Source: Escherichia coli (GTDB lineage: Bacteria; Pseudomonadota; Gammaproteobacteria; Enterobacterales; Enterobacteriaceae). From it: a DNA stretch of 64,000 bases. The notes under the pieces were generated by a model. It saw nothing but the letters and a program-made list of their open reading frames with translations, made no database searches and had not been told where the DNA came from. Location of the stretch: the NCBI RefSeq assembly GCF_044324875.1, contig NZ_CP172185.1; one strand, 5' to 3'. The translations under genes and the position numbers were made by a program. Every line of letters begins with the position of its first letter. Positions within the stretch are counted from its first letter, which is position 1. Of the stretch, positions 24,816-39,042 are shown in pieces.

Positions 24816-25550
24816 ATGTCCAAACTCGATCTAAACGCCCTGAACGAACTGCCGAAGGTAGATCGCATTCTGGCGCTGGCAGAAACTAACGCCGAACTGG
24901 AAAAACTGGATGCTGAAGGCCGCGTTGCCTGGGCGCTGGATAATCTGCCCGGTGAATATGTACTTTCTTCCAGTTTCGGCATTCAGGCGGCGGTGAGCCT
25001 GCATCTGGTGAATCAGATTCACCCGGATATCCCGGTGATCCTGACCGATACGGGTTATCTGTTCCCGGAAACCTACCGCTTTATTGACGAGTTAACGGAC
25101 AAACTCAAGCTCAACCTGAAAGTGTACCGCGCTACCGAAAGCGCCGCCTGGCAGGAAGCGCGCTACGGCAAACTGTGGGAGCAGGGTGTTGAAGGCATTG
25201 AAAAGTACAATGACATCAACAAAGTCGAACCGATGAACCGGGCGCTGAAAGAACTGAATGCGCAAACGTGGTTTGCTGGCCTGCGCCGCGAACAATCCGG
25301 CAGTCGCGCCAATTTACCGGTGCTGGCAATTCAGCGTGGCGTATTTAAAGTGCTGCCGATTATCGACTGGGATAACCGAACGATATATCAGTATCTGCAA
25401 AAACATGGCCTGAAATATCATCCATTATGGGACGAAGGATATTTATCCGTCGGTGATACCCATACAACCCGTAAATGGGAACCCGGCATGGCGGAAGAAG
25501 AAACGCGTTTCTTTGGCTTAAAAAGGGAATGTGGGCTGCACGAAGGGTAA
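24816..25550 (+). CDS. cysH: Phosphoadenosine phosphosulfate (PAPS) reductase
   Basis: ORF 24663..25550; start set at ATG 24816 ([11 protein letters not shown]) after GAGG; 244 aa; C-terminal ECGLH motif. Confidence 0.95.
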
Positions 25551-25815
25551 AATATCGTACCGCTTAATAAACGTCTCTGTCTGAAAAGATGGGGGCGTTT
25601 TTATTTTGCGAGCAGCATTCCTGATTTTAAACGTGAACGCCGCTGGAAGAATTATCAAGTATAGAATGGCGTTGGGTGCTTGAGGCTGTCTGGCGTTAAG
25701 CATTCGCGAGGTTCCAGATGGACAAAAGCCCCAGGCGATATTTCTATCAACCTGAGGCCAGCGTTCGAACCTAAGCAATTCGAATGTTAGTCTCTTCTTT
25801 GCAGGGAGGCAAGAC

Positions 25816-25968
25816 ATGCTGACAAAATATGCCCTTGTGGCAATCATCGTACTGTGTTGTACAGTACTGGGATTCACGCTGATGGTAGGCGACTCGTTGT
25901 GTGAGTTGAGTATCAGAGAACGTGGTATGGAGTTTAAGGCAGTTCTCGCTTACGAATCGAAGAAGTAG
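25816..25968 (+). CDS. Hok/Gef-family type I toxin (50 aa)
   Basis: Not in ORF track (<60 aa). ATG 25816 preceded by GGGAGG; product [50 protein letters not shown] has the Hok architecture (single TM then DSLCEL..); followed by ACGCGGGG-loop-CCCCGCGT hairpin (25974..25995). Confidence 0.75.
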
Positions 25969-26319
25969 CCACCACGCGGGGGTAAAACCCCGCGTATTGA
26001 ATTGTGATGGTTTGGTCTCCTGCACCCTTTTTTAATTTATATTGTTTATGTGAATATTATGCCTATGTTTATTATTCATATATATTACGGATGAAAATTA
26101 TTTGATTATTCATAATGTGCAAAATGGCATCTGAATCGATCGCAGTTTGGCATTCGAATCGATCATGATTTGGCATCCATCTCCGATCACAGTTTGGCAT
26201 CACAATCGATCACGATTTGGCATGCTTCCGATCATTGATTGGCATCCTGCCAGTCACTCCGGGAATTAACTCTTTTCACCACAGTCTCCATTGCCGTGTT
26301 TAAACCAGTGGAGACGTCA

Positions 26320-27885
26320 ATGTCCAGAAAGAGAAAATCCAGGAGCACTATGGAAACCTGTTTTAAGATCCTTCAGCTCAAGTTCGACAAGAAGCTGACT
26401 AACCGTTGTATCGGACTGACGTTACACATCAGCGCCTCAACCGTTTTTGAGGTTCTTGCCCGCTTCAAAGCCTCTTCTCTGTCATGGCCATTACCTGCTG
26501 ATATATCCCATGACACGCTGGAGAAACTCATTTTTCCGCCCAAAGACACCTTTGCATCAGAGCTTGTAATGCCTGACATGTTGTACTTCGATACGGAAAT
26601 GAGAAAACCAGGTGTGACGCGGCAACTGTTGTGGATGGAATACAAGGCACAGGCGGGTAACAAAGCGATGGGATACTCGCACTTCTGCCGTTGCTACCGG
26701 GAGTGGAAAAAAACGCGACGTCTCTCCATGCGCCAGGAGCATCGTGCCGGCGAAAAGCTTTTTATCGACTTCTGTGGTCCTACGGTTCCTGTTATTAATC
26801 CGGACACCGGTGAGATACGCCGCGTGGCAATCTTCGTGGCCGTAATGGGGGCGTCCAACTATACCTACGTTGAAGCGTGCGAAGGTCAGGACATGATGTC
26901 ATGGTTAAATGCCCACAGCCGTTGCCTGACCTTCCTGGGCGGCGTACCGAAGCTGCTCATCCCCGATAACCTCAGAAGCGCAGTGAAAAAGGCCGATCGA
27001 TATGAGCCTGTCATCAACGACAGTTATCAGGCACTGGCTGAGCACTATGGCACGGTTATCATCCCGGCCCGACCACGCAAACCTAAAGATAAACCAAAAG
27101 CAGAAAACGGCGTCCTCATCGTTGAACGATGGCTTCTTGCCCGCATCCGTAATGAAACCTTCCACACGCTCAGGGCGCTGAATGCGCGCCTTAGGGAGTT
27201 ACTGACAGACATGAATAACCGGCCAATGAAGGGGTACGGCAATCAAACCCGTGCAGAACGCTTCCGCATACTGGATGCGCCAGCACTCTCTCCGCTGCCT
27301 CTGGCACCTTATGAATACACGGAATACAAAGCTGTGAAGGTTGGCCCTGACTACCACGTTGAATATGCCCGTCACTGGTACTCCGTTCCACACGAACTGG
27401 TCGGTCAGCGTCTGTCACTGAAGGCGGGGCAGTCGGTGGTACAGCTCTGGCACAAGGGGCAGTGTGTGGCGCAACATCCGCGCAGCACACATGAATATAA
27501 ACACACAACCAATCCGCTTCACATGCCAGAGCGCCACCGGCAGCACGGGACATGGACACCGGAACGCCTGATCGAGCAGGGAAAACGTACGGGCCCGTCC
27601 ACAGGCCGGGTGGTTGAATCCATGCTGAAGGCAAAACCCCATCCGGAACTGGCTTATCGTGCAGTTCTGGGGCTGCTGGCACTTCAGAAAAAATACGGCC
27701 CGGAACGGCTGGAAAAGGCCTGTTACGTTGCCCTGCACTATAACGCCCCTGACAGACGCTTTATCGACAATCTGCTGCGTCACCATCGGGAGAACCTGGA
27801 GCTTCCATTATCCCGCCAGGGCGAACAACATCCGGCATATGCTTCAGAGCATGAAAACCTGCGTGGTCCGGGCTACTACCACTGA
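26320..27885 (+). CDS. istA: IS21-family transposase IstA
   Basis: ORF 26239..27885; start set at ATG 26320 (MSRKRK..); N-terminal HTH region and DDE-type core. Confidence 0.85.
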   Translation: MSRKRKSRSTMETCFKILQLKFDKKLTNRCIGLTLHISASTVFEVLARFKASSLSWPLPADISHDTLEKLIFPPKDTFASELVMPDMLYFDTEMRKPGVTRQLLWMEYKAQAGNKAMGYSHFCRCYREWKKTRRLSMRQEHRAGEKLFIDFCGPTVPVINPDTGEIRRVAIFVAVMGASNYTYVEACEGQDMMSWLNAHSRCLTFLGGVPKLLIPDNLRSAVKKADRYEPVINDSYQALAEHYGTVIIPARPRKPKDKPKAENGVLIVERWLLARIRNETFHTLRALNARLRELLTDMNNRPMKGYGNQTRAERFRILDAPALSPLPLAPYEYTEYKAVKVGPDYHVEYARHWYSVPHELVGQRLSLKAGQSVVQLWHKGQCVAQHPRSTHEYKHTTNPLHMPERHRQHGTWTPERLIEQGKRTGPSTGRVVESMLKAKPHPELAYRAVLGLLALQKKYGPERLEKACYVALHYNAPDRRFIDNLLRHHRENLELPLSRQGEQHPAYASEHENLRGPGYYH

Positions 27886-27901
27886 CAGAAGGAACAACAG
27901 T

Positions 27902-28657
27902 ATGAGTGATAACCTGTTAAACAAACTGACCCAACTGAAACTCCCGGCGATGGCCGGGAGCCTGATACGGCAGCGGGAAACGCCTCAGACCTACGACGAA
28001 CTGTCGTTCGAGGAAAGGCTGACGCTGCTGGTTGATGACGAGCTTCTGAGCAGGGAAAACAGCCGTGTGGCACGGTTGAGAAAAAATGCCGGCCTGAAAT
28101 ACCAGGCAACACCGGAAGGGCTGCGCTATCCGGCCTCAAGAGGTCTGCGGGCTGAACAGATGAGAGAACTGCTGAACGGCCACTACATAACCCACAGGAA
28201 AAACCTGCTGATAACCGGTCCGACAGGATGTGGCAAGAGCTGGATAGCCAATGCGCTGGGCGAACAGGCATGTCGACAGAAACACAGCGTCCGGTACTGT
28301 AGAACCGGGCGATTACTGGAACAACTGGCTCAGGGACGTGTTGATGGCAGCTGGCTGAAATATCTGAAACAGTTGCAAAAAATACAGGTTCTAATCCTGG
28401 ACGATCTGGGGCTGGAACAGTTAAGTAACGCCCAGTGTAATGACCTTCTGGAGCTCATAGAGGATCGTTACGGACAAAGCAGCACGATAGTGGTAAGCCA
28501 GTTCCCGGTAGATAAATGGCATGGTCTGATGGAGAACCCAACAACAGCAGATGCCATCCTGGACAGACTGGTACATAACTCACACCGAGTGGTCCTTCAG
28601 GGAGAGTCACTGAGGAAAAATCCCCCGGTAGTGGAAAGCAGCGAAAAAACGCGTTAA
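27902..28657 (+). CDS. istB: IS21-family ATP-binding helper protein IstB
   Basis: ORF 27659..28657; start set at ATG 27902 (MSDNLLNKLTQL); Walker A GPTGCGKS, Walker B ILDDLG. Confidence 0.88.
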   Translation: MSDNLLNKLTQLKLPAMAGSLIRQRETPQTYDELSFEERLTLLVDDELLSRENSRVARLRKNAGLKYQATPEGLRYPASRGLRAEQMRELLNGHYITHRKNLLITGPTGCGKSWIANALGEQACRQKHSVRYCRTGRLLEQLAQGRVDGSWLKYLKQLQKIQVLILDDLGLEQLSNAQCNDLLELIEDRYGQSSTIVVSQFPVDKWHGLMENPTTADAILDRLVHNSHRVVLQGESLRKNPPVVESSEKTR

Positions 28658-28808
28658 AAAGCGGTAGAAAAAGTTAAGTTCCCGGTTGATCGAATGGATG
28701 CGAATCGCTGATCGGACTTCGATGCCAATCCGTGATCGAATAGAGCGGAATACGCACATAATGTAAATATTTTATTGAACGATATATATCACAGATAATT
28801 TTTAATAT

Positions 28809-31508
28809 ATGCGTAAATATCCTTTAAGTTTACTGAAGGATAAAAATATTGTGACTTTTTTTGATTTCTGGGGAAAAACCCGACGCGGCGAGAAAGACGG
28901 GGGCGACGACTATCACCTTCTTTGCTGGCATTCGCTGGATGTAGCCGCGATGGGCTATTTAATGGTTAAAAGCAATTGCTTCGGGCTGACTGACTATTTT
29001 CGTCAACTAGGTTTCGCTGATACGGAGCAGGCAGCACAATTTTTCGCCTGGCTATTGTGCTGGCACGATACTGGAAAATTTGCCCGCTCTTTTCAGCAAC
29101 TTTACCTGCACCCACAACTCAAGGTTCCGGAAGGCGCAAGAAAGAATTACGAAAAGATCTCTCATTCAACGCTGGGCTACTGGCTGTGGCATCATTATTT
29201 AAGTGAATACGAAGAATTGCTTCCTTCATCTTCACTCTCTCCGCGCAAACTTAAACGGGTGATGGAGATGTGGATGCCCATAACTACCGGGCATCATGGT
29301 CGCCCGCCTGACCGTATTGATGAACTGGATAATTTTCTGCCTGAAGACAAAGCTGCCGCGCGAGATTTTCTTCTTGAAATCAAACCACTGTTTCCGCTCA
29401 TAGAGATCCCCGCATTCTGGGATGATGATGAGGGCATTGAACTTATAAAACACCTTTCCTGGTATATCTCTGCAACCGTCGTGCTCGCAGACTGGACGGG
29501 TTCGTCAACGCGATTTTTTCCACGCGTCGCACACCCAATGGATATTAAAGGTTACTGGCAGAAAACTTTAGTTCAGGCTCAAAACGCCTTAACCGTCTTT
29601 CCTCTAAAAGCAAAAGTCGCGCCTTTCACCGGAATTAATACGCTGTTTCCTTTTATTGAGAATCCGACACCGTTACAGCAAAAGGTGCTGGATCTGGATA
29701 TCAGCCAGCCAGGGCCACAGTTATTTATTCTGGAAGATGTGACTGGCGCAGGTAAAACGGAAGCGGCGCTTATCCTGGCGCACAGGTTGATGGCTGCGGG
29801 TAAAGCGCAGGGTTTGTTTTTTGGCCTGCCAACAATGGCAACGGCCAATGCCATGTACGATCGACTGGTCAAAACCTGGCTTGCTTTCTATTCGCCAGAG
29901 TCCCGCCCCAGCCTGGTGCTGGCACACAGTGCCCGAACATTAATGGACCGCTTTAATGAATCACTCTGGTCCGGTGATTTAGTCGGGTCAGAAGAACCGG
30001 ATGAACAAACGTTCAGTCAGGGATGTGCGGCCTGGTTTGCCGACAGTAACAAGAAGGCGCTACTGGCTGAAATTGGCGTCGGCACGCTGGATCAGGCGAT
30101 GATGGCTGTGATGCCGTTCAAACATAATAATCTGCGGCTTCTGGGACTGAGTAACAAAATCCTGCTGGCTGATGAGATCCATGCCTGTGACGCTTACATG
30201 TCATGCATTCTTGAAGGGCTGATCGAGCGGCAGGCGCGTGGCGGAAACAGCGTCATTTTGCTTTCTGCCACGTTATCTCAACAGCAGTGCGACAAACTCG
30301 TTGCTGCCTTTGCGCGTGGTACAGAGGGCCAGCAAGAAGCTCCGTTCCTGGAAAAGGATGATTACCCCTGGCTGACGCACGTTACGAAATCCGATGTGCA
30401 TTCACACCGGGTAGCGACGCGCAAAGACGTTGAGCGTAGCGTGAGCGTGGGTTGGCTTCATAGCGAACAAGAATGTATTGCGCGTATCGAATCGGCAGTA
30501 AGTCAGGGGAAATGCATCGCCTGGATCCGGAATTCTGTCGATGACGCTATTAAGGTTTATCGTCAGTTGCTTGCCCGCGGCGTCATTCCTGCTTCCAGCC
30601 TTTCTCTGTTTCATAGCCGCTTTGCTTTTAGCGATCGCCAGCGAATTGAAACGGAAACGCTGGCACGCTTCGGTAAAGAAGATAGCTCACAGCGTGCCGG
30701 AAAAGTCCTCATTTGTACTCAGGTCTTAGAGTCGAGCGTTGATTGCGATATGGACGAAATGATTTCCGACCTGGCCCCTGTTGATTTGCTGATCCAGCGA
30801 GCGGGGCGATTACAGCGGCATATCCGCGATATTAATGGTCAGTTAAAGCGTGACGGAAAAGACGAGCGTTCCCCTCCTGAATTGCTGATTCTGGCCCCCG
30901 TCTGGGACGACGCTCCAGGTGACGAATGGTTCGGCAGTGCCATGCGTAACAGTGCATATGTCTATCCCGATCATGGACGAATCTGGCTGACGCAGCGTGT
31001 ACTGCGTGAGCAAGGCGCTATTCAAATGCCACACGCAGCCCGCCTTCTTATTGAATCAGTCTACGGTGAGGACGTGGTAATGCCGGAAGGATTTGCCCGC
31101 AGCGAGCAGGAGCAAGTGGGCAAATATTACTGCGATCGCGCAATGGCTAAAAAGTTTGTGCTGAACTTCAGGCCTGGCTATGCCGCCAATATCAACGATT
31201 ACCTTCCGGAAAAGCTGTCGACACGTCTGGCGGAGGAGTCTGTTTCCCTGTGGCTGGCTACCTGTATTGCCAGTGTGGTGAAGCCTTATGCCAACGGTGC
31301 TCACGCATGGGAAATGAGCGTTGTCAGAGTGCGTCGAAGCTGGTGGAAAAAACATCGGGATGAGTTTTCTTTACTGGAAGGGGAAGCGTTCAGGCAGTGG
31401 TGCATTGAACAGCGGAAAGATCCGGAGATGGCAAACGTGATTTTAGTTACCGATGACGAAAGTTGCGGGTATTCGGCTATGGAAGGATTGACTGGCAAGG
31501 TTGGTTGA
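28809..31508 (+). CDS. cas3: Cas3 nuclease/helicase (type I-E)
   Basis: 899 aa; HD nuclease motifs (LLCWHSLDVAA, WHDTGKF), DEAH-type helicase (GAGKTEAA, LADEIHA); immediately precedes cse1. Confidence 0.93.
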   Translation: MRKYPLSLLKDKNIVTFFDFWGKTRRGEKDGGDDYHLLCWHSLDVAAMGYLMVKSNCFGLTDYFRQLGFADTEQAAQFFAWLLCWHDTGKFARSFQQLYLHPQLKVPEGARKNYEKISHSTLGYWLWHHYLSEYEELLPSSSLSPRKLKRVMEMWMPITTGHHGRPPDRIDELDNFLPEDKAAARDFLLEIKPLFPLIEIPAFWDDDEGIELIKHLSWYISATVVLADWTGSSTRFFPRVAHPMDIKGYWQKTLVQAQNALTVFPLKAKVAPFTGINTLFPFIENPTPLQQKVLDLDISQPGPQLFILEDVTGAGKTEAALILAHRLMAAGKAQGLFFGLPTMATANAMYDRLVKTWLAFYSPESRPSLVLAHSARTLMDRFNESLWSGDLVGSEEPDEQTFSQGCAAWFADSNKKALLAEIGVGTLDQAMMAVMPFKHNNLRLLGLSNKILLADEIHACDAYMSCILEGLIERQARGGNSVILLSATLSQQQCDKLVAAFARGTEGQQEAPFLEKDDYPWLTHVTKSDVHSHRVATRKDVERSVSVGWLHSEQECIARIESAVSQGKCIAWIRNSVDDAIKVYRQLLARGVIPASSLSLFHSRFAFSDRQRIETETLARFGKEDSSQRAGKVLICTQVLESSVDCDMDEMISDLAPVDLLIQRAGRLQRHIRDINGQLKRDGKDERSPPELLILAPVWDDAPGDEWFGSAMRNSAYVYPDHGRIWLTQRVLREQGAIQMPHAARLLIESVYGEDVVMPEGFARSEQEQVGKYYCDRAMAKKFVLNFRPGYAANINDYLPEKLSTRLAEESVSLWLATCIASVVKPYANGAHAWEMSVVRVRRSWWKKHRDEFSLLEGEAFRQWCIEQRKDPEMANVILVTDDESCGYSAMEGLTGKVG

Positions 31509-31605
31509 GATGCCTGCGACAGGGCTCTCTGAATAGTTGATACACCGAAAAGGATGGAATGATGGACAACCGACCTGGGATGGTCTTTTTTACGAGAGGA
31601 TGCGT

Positions 31606-33168
31606 ATGAACTCGTTTTCACTTCTGACAACCCCGTGGTTGCCCGTTCGTTATAAAGACGGAACGACAGGCAAACTGGCGCCTGTCGATCTGGCGGATGA
31701 AAATGTTGTCGATATTGCTGCGCCACGGGCAGATCTCCAGGGAGCGGCATGGCAGTTTTTGCTGGGGCTACTACAAACCAGCTTTGCGCCAAAAGATCAT
31801 CGTCGTTGGGATGATATCTGGGAAGACGGACTGGAATCTGAAAAGCTACGGGAAGCATTGCTGTCCTTAGAACACGCTTTCCAGTTTGGGCCAGATTCCC
31901 CTTCATTTATGCAGGATTTCGAGGCGCTCACAGGAGATAAAGTTCAGGTCGCTTCGCTACTGCCTGAGATTCCCGGCGCTCAAACAACGAAGTTTAATAA
32001 AGACCACTTTATCAAGCGTGGTGTAACGGAATACCTGTGCCCACATTGTTCTGCGTTAGCTCTGTTCTCCCTACAGTTAAATGCGCCGTCAGGTGGTAAA
32101 GGCTACCGCACCGGTTTACGCGGCGGTGGGCCGATGACCACTCTGATTGAATTACAGGAATATCAGGGCAATCAACAAACGCCCTTGTGGCGCAAACTGT
32201 GGCTCAATGTGATGCCGCAGGACGAAGCCGACTTACCGCTACCCAAAAAATTTGACGATCTGGTTTTCCCCTGGCTTGGCCCGACGCGTACCAGCGAACT
32301 GGCCGGTGCGGTGGTAACCGATGATCAGGTTAATAAACTCCAGGCGTACTGGGGAATGCCGCGGCGTATTCGTATTGATTTTAATACCACGACAGTCGGC
32401 AACTGCGATATTTGCGGCGAGCAGAACGACGCGCTCCTGAGCCTGATGACGACCAAAAATTACGGCGCGAATTATGCCATGTGGCAGCATCCCTTAACGC
32501 CTTACCGTGTACCCCTTAAAGAGGGCGGCGAGTTTTACTCGGTCAAACCACAACCAGGCGGTTTAATCTGGCGCGACTGGTTAGGCCTTATCGAAACGGG
32601 TAAATCAGAAAACAATACGGAACTTCCCGCGCTGGTGGTGAAACTCTTTAATGCCAGCAGTCTCAAGCAGGCAAAAGTGGGCCTGTGGGGATTTGGTTAT
32701 GATTTTGACAACATGAAAGCGCGCTGTTGGTACGAACACCATTTTCCGCTGCTGCTCGATAAAAAAGAAGGCCAGATACCGAAGCTGCGGCTGGCTGCGC
32801 AAACGGCTTCACGGATTCTGAGTCTGTTACGGAGTGCATTGAAAGAAGCGTGGTTCTCCGATCCAAAAGGTGCACGGGGTGATTTCAGTTTTGTGGATAT
32901 CGACTTCTGGAACAAAACTCAGCATCGCTTCCTGAGGTTAGTGCGCCACATTGAAGAAGGTCAGGATGCGGATGAATTACTCAGCAAATGGCAAAAGGAA
33001 ATTTGGTTATTCGCGCGTCAGGATTTTGACGAGCGTGTCTTCACCAATCCATATGAGCCCGTTGATTTGAAACGCGTCATGACCGCGCGCAAGAAATATT
33101 TTACAACATCGGCGGAGAAGCAAAATGCTAAAGCCGCCAGGGAGAAAAAGCAGGAGGCTGCTGAATGA
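31606..33168 (+). CDS. casA: Cascade large subunit Cse1/CasA
   Basis: ORF 31537..33168; start set at ATG 31606 (MNSFSLLTTPWLPVR), 6 nt after GAGG; size and position fit Cse1. Confidence 0.85.
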   Translation: MNSFSLLTTPWLPVRYKDGTTGKLAPVDLADENVVDIAAPRADLQGAAWQFLLGLLQTSFAPKDHRRWDDIWEDGLESEKLREALLSLEHAFQFGPDSPSFMQDFEALTGDKVQVASLLPEIPGAQTTKFNKDHFIKRGVTEYLCPHCSALALFSLQLNAPSGGKGYRTGLRGGGPMTTLIELQEYQGNQQTPLWRKLWLNVMPQDEADLPLPKKFDDLVFPWLGPTRTSELAGAVVTDDQVNKLQAYWGMPRRIRIDFNTTTVGNCDICGEQNDALLSLMTTKNYGANYAMWQHPLTPYRVPLKEGGEFYSVKPQPGGLIWRDWLGLIETGKSENNTELPALVVKLFNASSLKQAKVGLWGFGYDFDNMKARCWYEHHFPLLLDKKEGQIPKLRLAAQTASRILSLLRSALKEAWFSDPKGARGDFSFVDIDFWNKTQHRFLRLVRHIEEGQDADELLSKWQKEIWLFARQDFDERVFTNPYEPVDLKRVMTARKKYFTTSAEKQNAKAAREKKQEAAE

Positions 33169-33701
33169 GTATTGTAAAAGAGGAGCACAAAGCCACGCTG
33201 CGTAAATGGCACGAAGAGTTGCAGGAAAAACGCGGCAATCGTGCCAGTCTGCGGCGTAGCACAACGGTTAATGATGTTTGTCTGTCAGAAGGGTTTCGTT
33301 CTCTGCTGATGCAGACCCACACTTTGTGGAAAATTGAAGCACAAGAGTGGCGTTTTACCGCACTGGCGCTGGTCGCCGCAGTTAGCGCCAATGTTAAAGC
33401 TATTGATGAACGGCAGCCTTTTGCCGCGCAGCTGGCGGCGGTAATGTCGGAGGGGCGTTTTACTCGCCTGTCGGCAGTAAAAACGCCTGATGATTTACTG
33501 CGTCAGTTACGTCGCGCGGTCAAATTATTAAATGGTTCCGTCAATCTTATCTCTTTGGCAGAAGATATTTTCCGCTGGTGCCAGGAGAGCGACGACCTGC
33601 TCAATCATCACCGCCGCCAGCAGCGGCCAACAGAATTTATCCGTATCCGCTGGGCGCTGGAATATTACCAGGCTGGCGACGCCGATAACGAACAAAATTA
33701 A
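33165..33701 (+). CDS. casB: Cascade small subunit Cse2/CasB
   Basis: 178 aa; start overlaps casA stop (ATGA). Confidence 0.85.
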   Translation: MSIVKEEHKATLRKWHEELQEKRGNRASLRRSTTVNDVCLSEGFRSLLMQTHTLWKIEAQEWRFTALALVAAVSANVKAIDERQPFAAQLAAVMSEGRFTRLSAVKTPDDLLRQLRRAVKLLNGSVNLISLAEDIFRWCQESDDLLNHHRRQQRPTEFIRIRWALEYYQAGDADNEQN

Positions 33702-33715
33702 TAAAGGACTATCTC

Positions 33716-34771
33716 ATGACGACATTTATTCAGCTTCATTTGTTAACCGCTTACCCTGCTGCCAACCTTAACCGTGATGACACCGGTGCGCCAAAAACTG
33801 TGGTACTGGGTGGAGCAACGCGTCTGCGCGTTTCCTCACAAAGTCTGAAACGTGCGTGGCGCACTTCTGCACTTTTTGAACAGGCACTGGCGGGCCATAT
33901 TGGTATTCGCAGTGGGCGTATTGCGCGTGAGGCGGCAACTATCCTGATTGAGAAAGGCATCGAAGAGAAAAAAGCCATCGAATGGGCGGCAAAAATTGCG
34001 GATTATCTTGGGAAAGCTAAAAACGACAAAAAACCAAAAGATCCGCTCACTAACGCCGAAACTGAACAGCTAGTCCATATCAGCCCGGCAGAATTTGACG
34101 CCGTAAAAGCGCTGGCCCATCAACTGGCCGAAGAAAAGCGCGCGCCAAAAGAGGAAGATCTCGCTTTGTTACGTAAAGATCGCATGGCGGTAGATATCGC
34201 TATGTTTGGTCGTATGCTGGCGAATAAACCCGAATTTAATGTTGAAGCCGCCTGCCAGGTCGCGCATGCATTTGGTGTCAGTGAAACGATTGTCGAAGAT
34301 GATTTTTTCACCGCCGTTGATGATTTGCGCCAGGCTTCTGAAGATGCCGGTGCCGGGCATCTTGGTGAAACCGGATTCGGTTCTGCGCTGTTCTACACCT
34401 ATATCTGCATCGATAAAGATCTGCTGGTCGAAAACCTCGGCGGTGACGAAGCGTTAGCTAATCAGACCTTGCGCGCCTTTACGGAAGCCGCACTTAAAGT
34501 CTCCCCAACCGGCAAACAGAACAGCTTTGCCAGCCGTGCCTACGCCTCCTGGGCGCTGGCAGAAAAAGGCACTGAACAACCACGCTCTCTGGCGGCGGCT
34601 TTCTATGAACCCATTAATGGCACCCGGCAGTTAGATGTGGCGGTGCAGCGTATTACAACGCTTCGCGAAAATATGAATACGGTCTATGAACAGAAGACCG
34701 AATGCGCAAGCTTTGACGTGATGAACAAACAGGGAAGCATGAAGGACGTGCTGGACTTTATCTGCGCGTAA
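33716..34771 (+). CDS. casC: Cascade backbone Cas7e/CasC
   Basis: 351 aa; position and size in the type I-E operon. Confidence 0.88.
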   Translation: MTTFIQLHLLTAYPAANLNRDDTGAPKTVVLGGATRLRVSSQSLKRAWRTSALFEQALAGHIGIRSGRIAREAATILIEKGIEEKKAIEWAAKIADYLGKAKNDKKPKDPLTNAETEQLVHISPAEFDAVKALAHQLAEEKRAPKEEDLALLRKDRMAVDIAMFGRMLANKPEFNVEAACQVAHAFGVSETIVEDDFFTAVDDLRQASEDAGAGHLGETGFGSALFYTYICIDKDLLVENLGGDEALANQTLRAFTEAALKVSPTGKQNSFASRAYASWALAEKGTEQPRSLAAAFYEPINGTRQLDVAVQRITTLRENMNTVYEQKTECASFDVMNKQGSMKDVLDFICA

Positions 34772-34781
34772 GGGGCGGCTA

Positions 34782-35528
34782 ATGAGCCAATATTTGATTT
34801 TTCAGCTTCATGGGCCAATGGCATCCTGGGGCGTCGATGCCCCCGGCGAAGTGCGTCATACCCATGAACTGCCTTCGCGCTCAGCATTGCTGGGGCTGCT
34901 GGCTGCCGGGGTAGGGATTCGGCGTGATGATACCGAACGATTAAACGCGTTTAACCGCCACTATTCACTGGTGGTTTGCGCCAGCCGTAACCCGCGCTGG
35001 GCACGGGATTATCACACGGTCCAGATGCCAAAAGAGGTGCGTAAAGCGCGTTATTTCAGCCGTCGCGAAGAGTTGAGCGCCCCTGATCTTCTGAGCGCGA
35101 TTATCTCCCGGCGCGACTACTACACCGATGCCTGGTGGATGGTGGCGGTGGCAACAACCCCCGATGCGCCTTACAGGCTTGAACAGTTGCAGGACGGTTT
35201 ACGTCATCCGGTTTTTCCGCTTTATCTGGGGCGAAAAAGTCATCCGCTGGCGTTACCACTTGCGCCGTTACTGCTCGAAGGCAACGCGTCTGATGTCTTA
35301 CGTAACGCATACCAACAGTATCAGGATAGTTTCCGCGAACTGAAAGTCTCACTCCCGAAACTTCAGGATGAATGCTGGTGGGAAGGGGAACACGACGGCC
35401 TGGTCGCGAGCAAAATATTACGTCGCCGGGATGTTCCTTTAAATCGTCAGCAGTGGCTGTTTGGGGAACGCACCATCAATCAGGGGCCGTGGCTCAGCAA
35501 GGAGGAACCATGTACCTCTCAAGAATAA
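34782..35528 (+). CDS. casD: Cascade Cas5e/CasD
   Basis: 248 aa; position and size in the type I-E operon. Confidence 0.85.
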   Translation: MSQYLIFQLHGPMASWGVDAPGEVRHTHELPSRSALLGLLAAGVGIRRDDTERLNAFNRHYSLVVCASRNPRWARDYHTVQMPKEVRKARYFSRREELSAPDLLSAIISRRDYYTDAWWMVAVATTPDAPYRLEQLQDGLRHPVFPLYLGRKSHPLALPLAPLLLEGNASDVLRNAYQQYQDSFRELKVSLPKLQDECWWEGEHDGLVASKILRRRDVPLNRQQWLFGERTINQGPWLSKEEPCTSQE

Positions 35529-36156
35529 CCTTACATACCGGCCAGCTTTTGCCTGCGCAGTTGCTGCATTTGGTGGATCGCGGTGAATATGTAATGCATC
35601 AGTGGCTGTGGGATCTTTTTCCTGGCGGCAAAGAAAGGCAATTTCTTTATCGTCGGGAAGAACTCCAGGGGGCGTTTCGCTTTTTTGTCCTGTCGCAGGA
35701 ACGCCCGGCGGAAAGTGATATTTTCACCATCGAATGCCGACCATTTGCGCCAGAGTTGCGTACCGGACAATCCCTTTGTTTCAACCTGCGGGCGAATCCA
35801 ACAATTTGTAAAGCGGGCAAACGCCACGACTTGCTGATGGAGGCGAAACGGCAGGTGAGGGGGCAGGTGGAAGGAAGTGATGTCTGGTTGCATCAACAAC
35901 AGGCGGCGCTGGACTGGCTGGCAGCGCAGGGGGAAAGAAGCGGTTTTACACTACTGGATACCTCGGTCGATGCCTACCGACAACAGCAACTGCGGCGGGA
36001 AAACTCCCGGCAACTGATCCAGTTCAGTAGCGTGGATTATACGGGGATGCTTACGGTCACCGATCCTGGGTTATTTCTGCAACGTCTCAGTCAGGGGTAT
36101 GGCAAAAGCCGGGCGTTCGGTTGTGGTCTGATGCTGATCAAACCCGGAGCAGAGGC

Positions 36157-36160
<4 letters not shown>
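35510..36160 (+). CDS. casE: Cas6e/CasE pre-crRNA endoribonuclease
   Basis: ORF 35372..36160; start set at ATG 35510 (MYLSRITL) after AGGAGG; overlaps casD end. Confidence 0.88.
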
Positions 36161-37370
<1,210 letters not shown>

Positions 37371-37466
37371 GTTAGACGTTCTTTAAAAATAAGGAAATGT
37401 TTGAATTTAGTTGGTAGATTGTTGATGTGGAATAAATTTGTTTAAAAACAGATATGTATGCTTAGT
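37371..37466 (+). promoter_or_regulatory. CRISPR leader for cas-adjacent array
   Basis: AT-rich 96 bp between cas2 stop and first repeat; contains AGTTGGTAGATTGT at 37409..37422. Confidence 0.75.
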
Positions 37467-37983
37467 GTGTTCCCCGCGCCAGCGGGGATAAACCGCTTTT
37501 GTTTCTGATTTCTACGCCTGTGGGTAAGTGTTCCCCGCGCCAGCGGGGATAAACCGGAGCAACTACTCGCAGCACAACAGGCAGGTAGGTGTTCCCCGCG
37601 CCAGCGGGGATAAACCGTTTTCTCTAATTACAGTGATTTTTCAAAATCCGTGTTCCCCGCGCCAGCGGGGATAAACCGCGATTCAAAAATAAAATGACGA
37701 CGGAGGAGGCGTGTTCCCCGCGCCAGCGGGGATAAACCGCCGTCGAAGTGACCATGCTCTTTCATTGTGATGTGTTCCCCGCGCCAGCGGGGATAAACCG
37801 AACACAGCGTAAAACCGTCGCAGCCATGCCGAGAGTTCCCCGCGCCAGTGGGGATAAACCGATTGGTCGGTTATGCATCCTGCTAACCAGATTGTGTTCC
37901 CCGCACCAGCGGGGATAAACCGTAATATTAGACTAATGTTTTTTTGTTGAGTTCGTGTTCCCCCGCCACTGCGGTAGAACTCC
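37467..37983 (+). CRISPR. Type I-E CRISPR array, 9 repeats / 8 spacers (repeat GTGTTCCCCGCGCCAGCGGGGATAAACCG; terminal repeat degenerate)
   Basis: Repeats start at 37467, 37528, 37589, 37650, 37711, 37772, 37833, 37894, 37955 (61-bp period); repeats 7 and 8 carry point changes; repeat 9 is GTGTTCCCCCGCCACTGCGGTAGAACTCC. Confidence 0.97.
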
Positions 37984-38004: not shown

Positions 38005-39042
38005 TCAAGACGCCTTCGCCAGCTCCTTCACCAGCGGTAGCATTATCCGCATAACATCACGGCAGCGACGTTCTATTCTTCCTGGAAGTGCCTTATCAAT
38101 ATGTTGTTGATTATCCAGTCTTACGTCATGCCAGCTATTTCCCGCAGGGAATGCAGCTGTTTTTGCGCGTTGCTGATAACCATCCTTATTCCCAAGATTC
38201 CAATTTGTTGCTTCTACCGAAAGTACGGCAATACCGGCTTTGTCGAAAACTTCGGCGTCATTACAACAGCCAGTACCCTTCGGATAATTTTTATTCAAAC
38301 CCGGATTGGTCGTTGCGGCAATTCCATGACTACGCGCAATTGCCAGTGCCCTGTCGCGCGTTAATTTCCTTACTGCTTCAGGGGTTTTTACACCACTGTT
38401 GAAATACAATTTATCGCCAACAATTAAGTTATCGAGATTAATCACCAGCAGCGTATTTTTCTTTTCGGTGTCACTCATCCGCTTGAGTAAATTCTCAGCT
38501 CCTAATTTCCCTTCCTCTTCACCACTGGTCGCCACAAATCGAATACCATACTCGGTAGGCGTATTTTTCAGGCGTTCTGCCAGTTCCAGCATGACACCTA
38601 AACCTGCGGCGTTATCATCCATTCCTTGTAACGTCAGTCCGCCGAGATTGGCATCGGCGTCAGCATCGCTCAGCGGGGCGTAAGTATCCAGATGCGCCAT
38701 AATGATGATCTGCTGCGGCGCTTTGCCTTCATGAGCGGCAATCACCGTACTTCCCGTCACGTTATGCCAGCTCTTGCGATTATCGCGGGCGGTATAAATA
38801 TACCGACTATTAAATGTCCGAATATCACTGCGATAACCCATTTGCTGAAACTGTTGGCGAATATAATCGGCAGATAACATTTCTGCAGGAGTTCCGGTCA
38901 TGCGTCCCGGAAAGAAAGTAGCAATATGTCGTGCCTGGGTATTAGCAAAATCGCCAGGTTTAGGTGACGAGGCGTGTACGGGGAGAATAAAGCATACGCC
39001 GAGCGCCAGGGCAGCGGTACGGTGGCGCAATGCGGAAAACAT
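38005..39042 (-). CDS. iap: Alkaline phosphatase isozyme conversion aminopeptidase (M28 family)
   Basis: 345 aa with signal peptide; position flanking the CRISPR array. Confidence 0.92.
   Translation of the reverse strand: MFSALRHRTAALALGVCFILPVHASSPKPGDFANTQARHIATFFPGRMTGTPAEMLSADYIRQQFQQMGYRSDIRTFNSRYIYTARDNRKSWHNVTGSTVIAAHEGKAPQQIIIMAHLDTYAPLSDADADANLGGLTLQGMDDNAAGLGVMLELAERLKNTPTEYGIRFVATSGEEEGKLGAENLLKRMSDTEKKNTLLVINLDNLIVGDKLYFNSGVKTPEAVRKLTRDRALAIARSHGIAATTNPGLNKNYPKGTGCCNDAEVFDKAGIAVLSVEATNWNLGNKDGYQQRAKTAAFPAGNSWHDVRLDNQQHIDKALPGRIERRCRDVMRIMLPLVKELAKAS

Follow-up and report, generated by a model that had tools for sequence, protein, structure and literature searches.

An intact hokX/sokX-type toxin–antitoxin locus between cysH and cas3 in an Escherichia coli strain with an IS21-family insertion downstream

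The region from 25662 to 26033 of the window (i.e., the whole 64,000-nucleotide stretch of DNA that was analysed, from Escherichia coli contig NZ_CP172185.1) is very probably the chromosomal hokX/sokX type I toxin–antitoxin locus of E. coli, whose toxin is also called HokG, in a copy that is intact in this strain. The locus has already been described, and there is nothing new in the finding. It carries little weight as a discovery, since thousands of genomes have it annotated and papers already give it a name; what is of practical use is a worked map of the window, which places the hokX promoter, tac, SokX, the target hairpin, the Shine–Dalgarno (SD) sequence, the coding sequence, the 3' hairpin, and fbi (Table 1). 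The intact state of hokX sets this strain apart from K-12, where the toxin gene has been lost, and from strains whose 3' hairpin carries an IS186/IS421-type element.

Table 1. Features mapped in and around the hokX/sokX locus, with positions in the window and the basis of each placement
Feature	Position	Strand	Basis and remarks
Predicted hokX promoter, −10 box TAGAAT	25662..25667	+	Read from sequence, putative; 6 nt upstream of the predicted +1
Predicted full-length hokX mRNA, ~360 nt	25674..26033	+	5' end at Rfam model position 1; 3' end predicted from fbi and T6
tac element GGGUGCUUGAGGCU	25674..25687	+	mRNA 5' end; pairs with 26014..26027
sokX antisense RNA, 59 nt	25718..25776	-	57 of 59 bases identical to K-12 ncRNA sokX (b4701)
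Sok-target stem-loop of the hok leader	25754..25794	+	Fold of 3'-truncated mRNA and Rfam consensus structure
Predicted sokX promoter	25784..25812	-	−35 TTGCCT (25812..25807), 17-nt spacer, −10 TAACAT (25789..25784); by eye, putative
Candidate mini-mok, 12-codon reading frame	25784..25822	+	Enumeration of reading frames; out of frame; function putative
hokX Shine–Dalgarno sequence GGGAGG	25804..25809	+	Read from sequence; 6 nt 5' of the ATG
hokX (HokG) toxin coding sequence, 50 codons/50 aa	25816..25968	+	Pfam PF01848 match; RefSeq annotation
Conserved 3' stem-loop, 8 bp, GGGG-N6-CCCC core	25974..25995	+	Both RNA folds; ACGCGGGG-GUAAAA-CCCCGCGU
fbi element GGUCUCCUGCACCC, then T6	26014..26027, then 26028..26033	+	Folds and duplex comparison
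ISSso4-type IS21-family element, 2639 bp	26118..28756	+	Comparison with the empty site of AF40; context, outside the hok/sok locus
istA (inside the IS)	26320..27885		NCBIfam IS21 transposase
istB (inside the IS)	27902..28657		NCBIfam IstB helper ATPase
Complete type I-E CRISPR-Cas locus (cas3, casA–E, cas1, presumably cas2) and array	28809..37983
cas3 reading frame	28809..31508
CRISPR array, 9 repeats, period 61	37466..~37983
iap	38005..39042	-

Identity of the toxin gene and distribution of the locus

A 50-codon reading frame with a GGGAGG SD sequence had been proposed in a preliminary description of this DNA, and both were recovered where they had been placed, the frame opening with the ATG at 25816 and closing with the TAG at 25966..25968 (from reading of the sequence and from the list of open reading frames). 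The resemblance of its product to Hok/Gef peptides, which had been proposed as well, was borne out by a profile search, in which the Pfam model PF01848 (HOK_GEF) matched peptide residues 5–46 over model positions 1–42 of 42 with an E-value of 6.3e-10 (38.9 bits). On alignment with HokA, HokB, HokC, HokE, and the Hok peptide of plasmid R1, the invariant columns C14, T16, L28, E30, E39, and A45 were found to be kept, and residues 5–24 form a hydrophobic N-terminal stretch. Peptide identity amounted to 78% with HokE of K-12, 48% with HokA, and 33–37% with HokC, HokB, and R1 Hok (34% for R1 Hok). The peptide scored under the NCBIfam cut-offs for both the HokA equivalog NF007290 (53 vs. 89 bits) and the Hok subfamily NF007279 (39.5 vs. 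73 bits), and it is therefore regarded not as a HokA orthologue but as a separate paralogue (hokX/HokG). The sequence evidence thus supports the assignment of the small reading frame as a Hok-family toxin gene, with the mRNA 3' architecture of hok genes and a Sok-type antisense RNA upstream. A chance reading frame unrelated to Hok is practically out of the question: its small size is the sole point that would speak for such an origin, which is countered by the RefSeq annotation, synteny, and the match to K-12 sokX (see below), and refuted by the Pfam and Rfam matches.

The gene had been taken to be unannotated, which was found to be mistaken. The identical 153-nt reading frame is named “Hok/Gef family protein” (WP_000956458.1) in RefSeq for other E. 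coli genomes, the product is HokG in UniProt, and papers refer to the locus as hokX/sokX. In an exact-sequence look-up, the peptide was retrieved on at least 1000 public contigs, under names that include “Hok/Gef family protein,” “protein HokE,” and, in UniProt, “Putative protein HokG” (HOKG_ECO57). The 560-bp region was matched in 5425 of the 5426 complete E. coli genomes searched, with the matched reading frame annotated as “Hok/Gef family protein,” and the reading frame together with its 3' UTR (25816..26033) was present at no less than 95% identity, and always on the chromosome, in 4220 of the 5426.

Upstream of hokX lie cysJIH; the insertion element, cas3, casABCDE, cas1, the CRISPR array, and iap follow downstream. 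The gene order in strain AF40 is cysJ, cysI, cysH, Hok/Gef family protein (WP_000956458.1), cas3, and casA, and the hokX locus of the window is 99.8% identical to the AF40 sequence, which is free of the IS. Strain 98222 likewise has cysH, the gene for the Hok/Gef family protein, and cas3 in this order. In K-12 MG1655, the ncRNA sokX (b4701) is annotated between cysH and cas3; the K-12 sequence matches the window from cysH as far as the hok ATG and diverges beyond it, so that in K-12 everything past this ATG, and with it the toxin gene, has been lost and sokX alone kept. The position between cysH and the cas3/iap region, in an order common to AF40, 98222, and K-12, fits the hokX/sokX orthologue group. 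This agrees with published accounts, which locate hokX in the cysH–iap region and trace its first observation to E. coli B (PMC7232551), report hok and sokX beside cysH in 90% of UPEC strains and sokX only, like K-12, in the remainder (PMC12736100), and list a hok sok system as a component of CRISPR-I locus arrangements (PMC3903273). A bioRxiv survey of Hok diversity (10.1101/2025.08.07.668861) mentions neither cysH nor cas3 nor hokX.

Messenger RNA, antisense RNA, and leader of hokX

A consensus scan for promoters and terminators did not return the promoter of hok or that of sok, and gave no terminator downstream of hok; the terminator of cysH (25569..25600), a gene that ends at 25550, was all that it detected. 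Because both promoters were missed by the scan, they were placed by alignment with the K-12 loci and by eye. The predicted −10 box of hokX aligns with the −10 boxes of hokC, hokB, hokE, and the hok gene of the R1-type plasmid. No good −35 box was found for this promoter, and the −10 box scored under the threshold of the consensus scan. In the alignment with K-12 hokC, hokB, hokE, and the R1-type plasmid hok, the predicted start of the mRNA (GGGTGCTTGAGGC at 25674) is identical in hokC.

The Rfam model RF01794 (“sok”) matched the plus strand at full length (25674..25831, model positions 1–157 of 157) with 111.7 bits and an E-value of 2e-26, its gathering score being 59, and was the sole Rfam match in the 64-kb window. 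Since the match lies on the hok-sense strand and extends through the hok SD, what the model describes is the hok leader, with the complement of Sok inside it, rather than Sok as a short RNA. If the 157-nt match were copied into an annotation, Sok would be given the wrong strand as well as the wrong length, K-12 sokX being 59 nt long and located on the opposite strand. Two further resemblances to Rfam models were dismissed as chance, i.e., ctRNA_p42d at 25567..25609, which corresponds to the cysH terminator hairpin (26.4 bits vs. a gathering score of 50), and snR67 inside the terminal repeats of the IS, which scored far under its gathering score.

Folding of the predicted full-length transcript (25674..26033) yielded, in the MFE as well as the centroid structure (z −3.6), a predicted pairing of its 5' end (GGGUGC..GAGGCU) with GGUCUC..GCACCC at 26014..26027, in line with the tac/fbi pairing for which the preliminary description had suggested fold prediction. 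The tac/fbi duplex has a calculated energy of −21.8 kcal/mol, which was equalled by 9 out of 1000 shuffles of the 3' UTR. The same layout of stop codon, GC hairpin, spacer, fbi, and T-rich run is present in hokB and in the R1-type plasmid hok, with compensating base differences in tac/fbi relative to hokX (GGGUGC/GCACCC vs. GGCGC/GCGCC). When the last 35 nt were removed, the 5' end was freed into a local hairpin in the predicted fold, and the target stem-loop (25754..25794) formed; the local 5' hairpin is at odds with the tac stem in the Rfam consensus structure. As modelled, the 5'–3' pairing and the refolding on truncation match the tac/fbi processing scheme of R1 (PMC9841398).

The 3' fold-back had been equated with the GC hairpin that follows the stop codon. 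According to the folds, however, fbi is a separate stretch (26014..26027) that would pair with the mRNA 5' end. The hairpin is nevertheless present as described, with homologues downstream of hokB, hokC, hokE, and the R1-type plasmid hok. The T-rich tail that had been assigned to it does not adjoin it: the T-run (26028..26033) was located 32 nt past the hairpin, directly after fbi. Owing to this separation, hairpin and T-tail do not make up an intrinsic terminator of the simple kind, and none was reported there by the scan. The 3' hairpins of hok genes look like recurrent IS186 targets. In K-12, IS186 is inserted 18 to 19 bp after the stops of hokC and hokE (18 bp for hokE), inside the 3' hairpin, and IS150 within the hokA leader; in strain 98222 (NZ_CP173480.1), an IS421/IS186-type element is located inside the 3' hairpin of hokX, at a position equivalent to ~25990 of the window.

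A Sok-type antisense RNA had been expected upstream of the toxin gene, and it was placed on the minus strand through its near-identity to K-12 sokX (Table 1). The predicted fold of SokX (−22.7 kcal/mol, z −3.57) has an unpaired 5' tail and a terminator hairpin that leads into UUUUGU. Its putative promoter, the −35 box of which overlaps the hok SD, would place +1 at 25776, with the right spacing for the 5' end of K-12 sokX. This promoter has only 8 of 12 consensus matches and therefore went unreported by the scan. The loop of the Sok-target stem-loop (CCUAAGCAA, 25770..25778), in which CUAA forms a motif of the YUNR type, is complementary to the 5' end of SokX.

Of the overlapping mok frame that had also been expected, the canonical start is absent, and what was found is an out-of-frame reading frame of 12 codons (25784..25822). 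The alignment revealed no start codon (ATG, GTG, or TTG) in hokX where mok starts in hokC, hokB, and the R1-type plasmid hok. Enumeration of reading frames gave no start that lies upstream of hok and in its frame. A mok of the canonical kind, whether in frame as in mokC or with a 5'-arm start like mokB and the mok of the R1-type plasmid, was therefore rejected for the hokX leader. The mok ATG of hokC, hokB, and the R1-type plasmid locus sits in the 5' arm of the target hairpin, whereas hokX and hokE are without a start codon there; the ATG that both carry is in the 3' arm, at 25784 of the window for hokX. The 3'-arm ATG of hokE is in frame with hok and leads to a 12-codon N-terminal extension; a 5-nt difference shifts the frame in hokX. 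The resulting mini-mok candidate crosses the hok SD before it stops at the hok start, where its UGA (25820..25822) and the hok AUG share bases (AUGCUGA). A clear SD is missing from this candidate, and its start codon lies within a stem. In R1, hok is translated only if ribosomes translate mok up to the hok SD, and they need go no further (PMC9841398). The 12-codon reading frame, which extends that far, could therefore, by analogy, act as mok. Direct initiation at the strong hok SD is an equally possible alternative.

The state of the leader also bears on whether the locus is a decayed relic, in which hok is never translated for lack of a working mok start or because of inactivating point changes, as reported for hokB and hokD of K-12. 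Such decay is considered somewhat unlikely. It would fit the lack of a start where mokC, mokB, and the R1-type plasmid mok begin, the lack of one in frame upstream of hok, and the dependence of R1 hok on mok translation up to its SD (PMC9841398). It would also fit the statement, in the passage of PMC7232551 that cites Pedersen and Gerdes (1999), that all five chromosomal hok loci of K-12 are non-functional; given that report, the intact sequence of hokX is no proof of activity. Against decay, the reading frame, SD, 3' hairpin, and fbi are kept across the 4220 genomes counted above, the exact peptide recurs on the contigs retrieved in the look-up, and hokX has a strong SD of its own. Moreover, the same shifted ATG is found in the closest paralogue, hokE, which points to an arrangement specific to this subgroup rather than to decay. 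An intact hokX/sokX locus is the preferred reading.

Insertion element and CRISPR-Cas surroundings

An IS21-family element downstream of hok had been described and is present. It starts at 26118, i.e., 150 bp past the hok stop, 122 nt past the hairpin, and 84 nt past the fbi/T-run, which marks the predicted 3' end of the mRNA. The element is flanked by a target duplication of 7 bp (CATAATG) at 26111..26117 and 28757..28763, and full-length copies that are 100% identical occur elsewhere in E. coli, where they are annotated as ISSso4 family. Its left end (26137..26247) contains five to six direct repeats of ~23 nt (CGATCAnnnTTTGGCAT), inverted copies of which are located at the right end (28687..28751); these terminal repeats are the multiple transposase-binding repeats typical of IS21-family elements. 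None of the 5426 complete E. coli genomes searched has the junction between hokX and the IS, and the insertion is therefore regarded as strain-specific.

Disruption of the locus by the IS had been hinted at in the preliminary description. It is judged very unlikely that the locus has been put out of action or deregulated by the IS21-family element, as happened with IS186 and IS150 at hokC, hokE, and hokA of K-12. IS elements do cut hok loci, as is evident from IS186 in the hairpins of hokC and hokE, IS150 in the leader of hokA, and the IS421/IS186-type element in the hokX hairpin of strain 98222; in addition, no GC-rich terminator is present between fbi/T6 and the insertion, and transcripts passing 26033 would end inside the IS. 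The element in the window, however, begins only beyond the fbi/T-run, unlike the K-12 insertions, and at this distance none of the mapped hok/sok elements is interrupted. All of them are intact, and the locus is nearly identical to its IS-free counterpart in AF40 (see above). The hokX/sokX locus is accordingly treated as uncut in this strain.

The cas3 gene beyond the IS encodes the 899-aa variant that is also seen in AF40, which scored under the cut-off of the NCBIfam Cas3 equivalog NF007248/PRK09694 (420.7 vs. 569 bits). The IS lies 52 bp upstream of the cas3 reading frame (28809) and separates cas3 from its native AT-rich upstream region. It could silence cas3 or re-drive it. In the sequence reconstructed without the IS (26034..26117 joined to 28764..28808), no GC-rich terminator hairpin was found from the hok fbi/T-run to the start of cas3; in IS-free strains, transcripts of hokX could therefore continue into the type I-E cas3. 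If this is true, read-through from hokX would link a toxin–antitoxin locus to CRISPR-Cas expression, and the IS would break the link in this strain. The proposal that a hokX/hokE subgroup has mok replaced by a 12-codon upstream reading frame, with coupling by termination and re-initiation in hokX, or else that hokX reads through into cas3, is considered distinctly unlikely.

Proposed mechanism and comparison with known systems

Toxicity, control by SokX, and mRNA processing are ascribed to hokX by analogy, from homology and predicted structure. By analogy to R1, a weak promoter would give rise to a stable mRNA of ~360 nt, in which the 5' tac (25674..25687) would be locked to the 3' fbi (26014..26027), so that the mRNA would be neither translated nor bound by Sok. 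Slow trimming from the 3' end to the stem-loop at 25974..25995 would then remove fbi, upon which the leader would refold and expose the target hairpin (25754..25794). The unstable 59-nt SokX, transcribed from the promoter that overlaps the hok SD, would pair by its 5' tail with the loop of the target hairpin, and the duplex would be destroyed. Once SokX is lost, ribosomes would translate the leader and subsequently hok, and the peptide would depolarise the inner membrane. In hokX, mok may be reduced to the 12-codon reading frame that ends on the hok start; the coupling would in that case be by termination and re-initiation. Alternatively, the strong SD of hok may serve for its direct translation.

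Among the known systems, hok/sok (parB) of R1 provides the mechanism, which is borrowed here from PMC9841398. The two loci have in common a Hok/Gef peptide, the order tac, Sok target, hok SD, hok, 3' hairpin, and fbi, and the 5'–3' pairing with compensating base differences. Peptide identity, in contrast, is only 34%. R1 mok, of 70 codons, has its start in the 5' arm of the target hairpin, and hokX does not have this start. Past fbi, the R1-type plasmid locus carries a further hairpin as a separate terminator, where hokX has only the T-run. Since hokX is chromosomal and R1 hok/sok plasmid-borne, post-segregational killing is no obvious role for hokX.

The closest paralogue is hokE/sokE of K-12, with 78% peptide identity and the same 3' hairpin. 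In both, the Sok 5' end lies 40–44 nt upstream of the hok ATG, and the sole ATG of the leader is located in the 3' arm of the target hairpin. hokE differs in its chromosomal site, beside ybdK, and in that its leader ATG is in frame with hok, whereas the counterpart in hokX is out of frame and its reading frame stops on the hok start. Furthermore, hokE of K-12 is cut by IS186 18 bp after the stop, and hokX is uncut here.

hokX/sokX of E. coli is the same locus as the one in the window: it has the same position between cysH and cas3/iap, the identical peptide (WP_000956458.1), and a sokX in which 57 of 59 bases are identical to K-12. The only difference from hokX/sokX elsewhere is the strain-specific ISSso4-type insertion 150 bp downstream.
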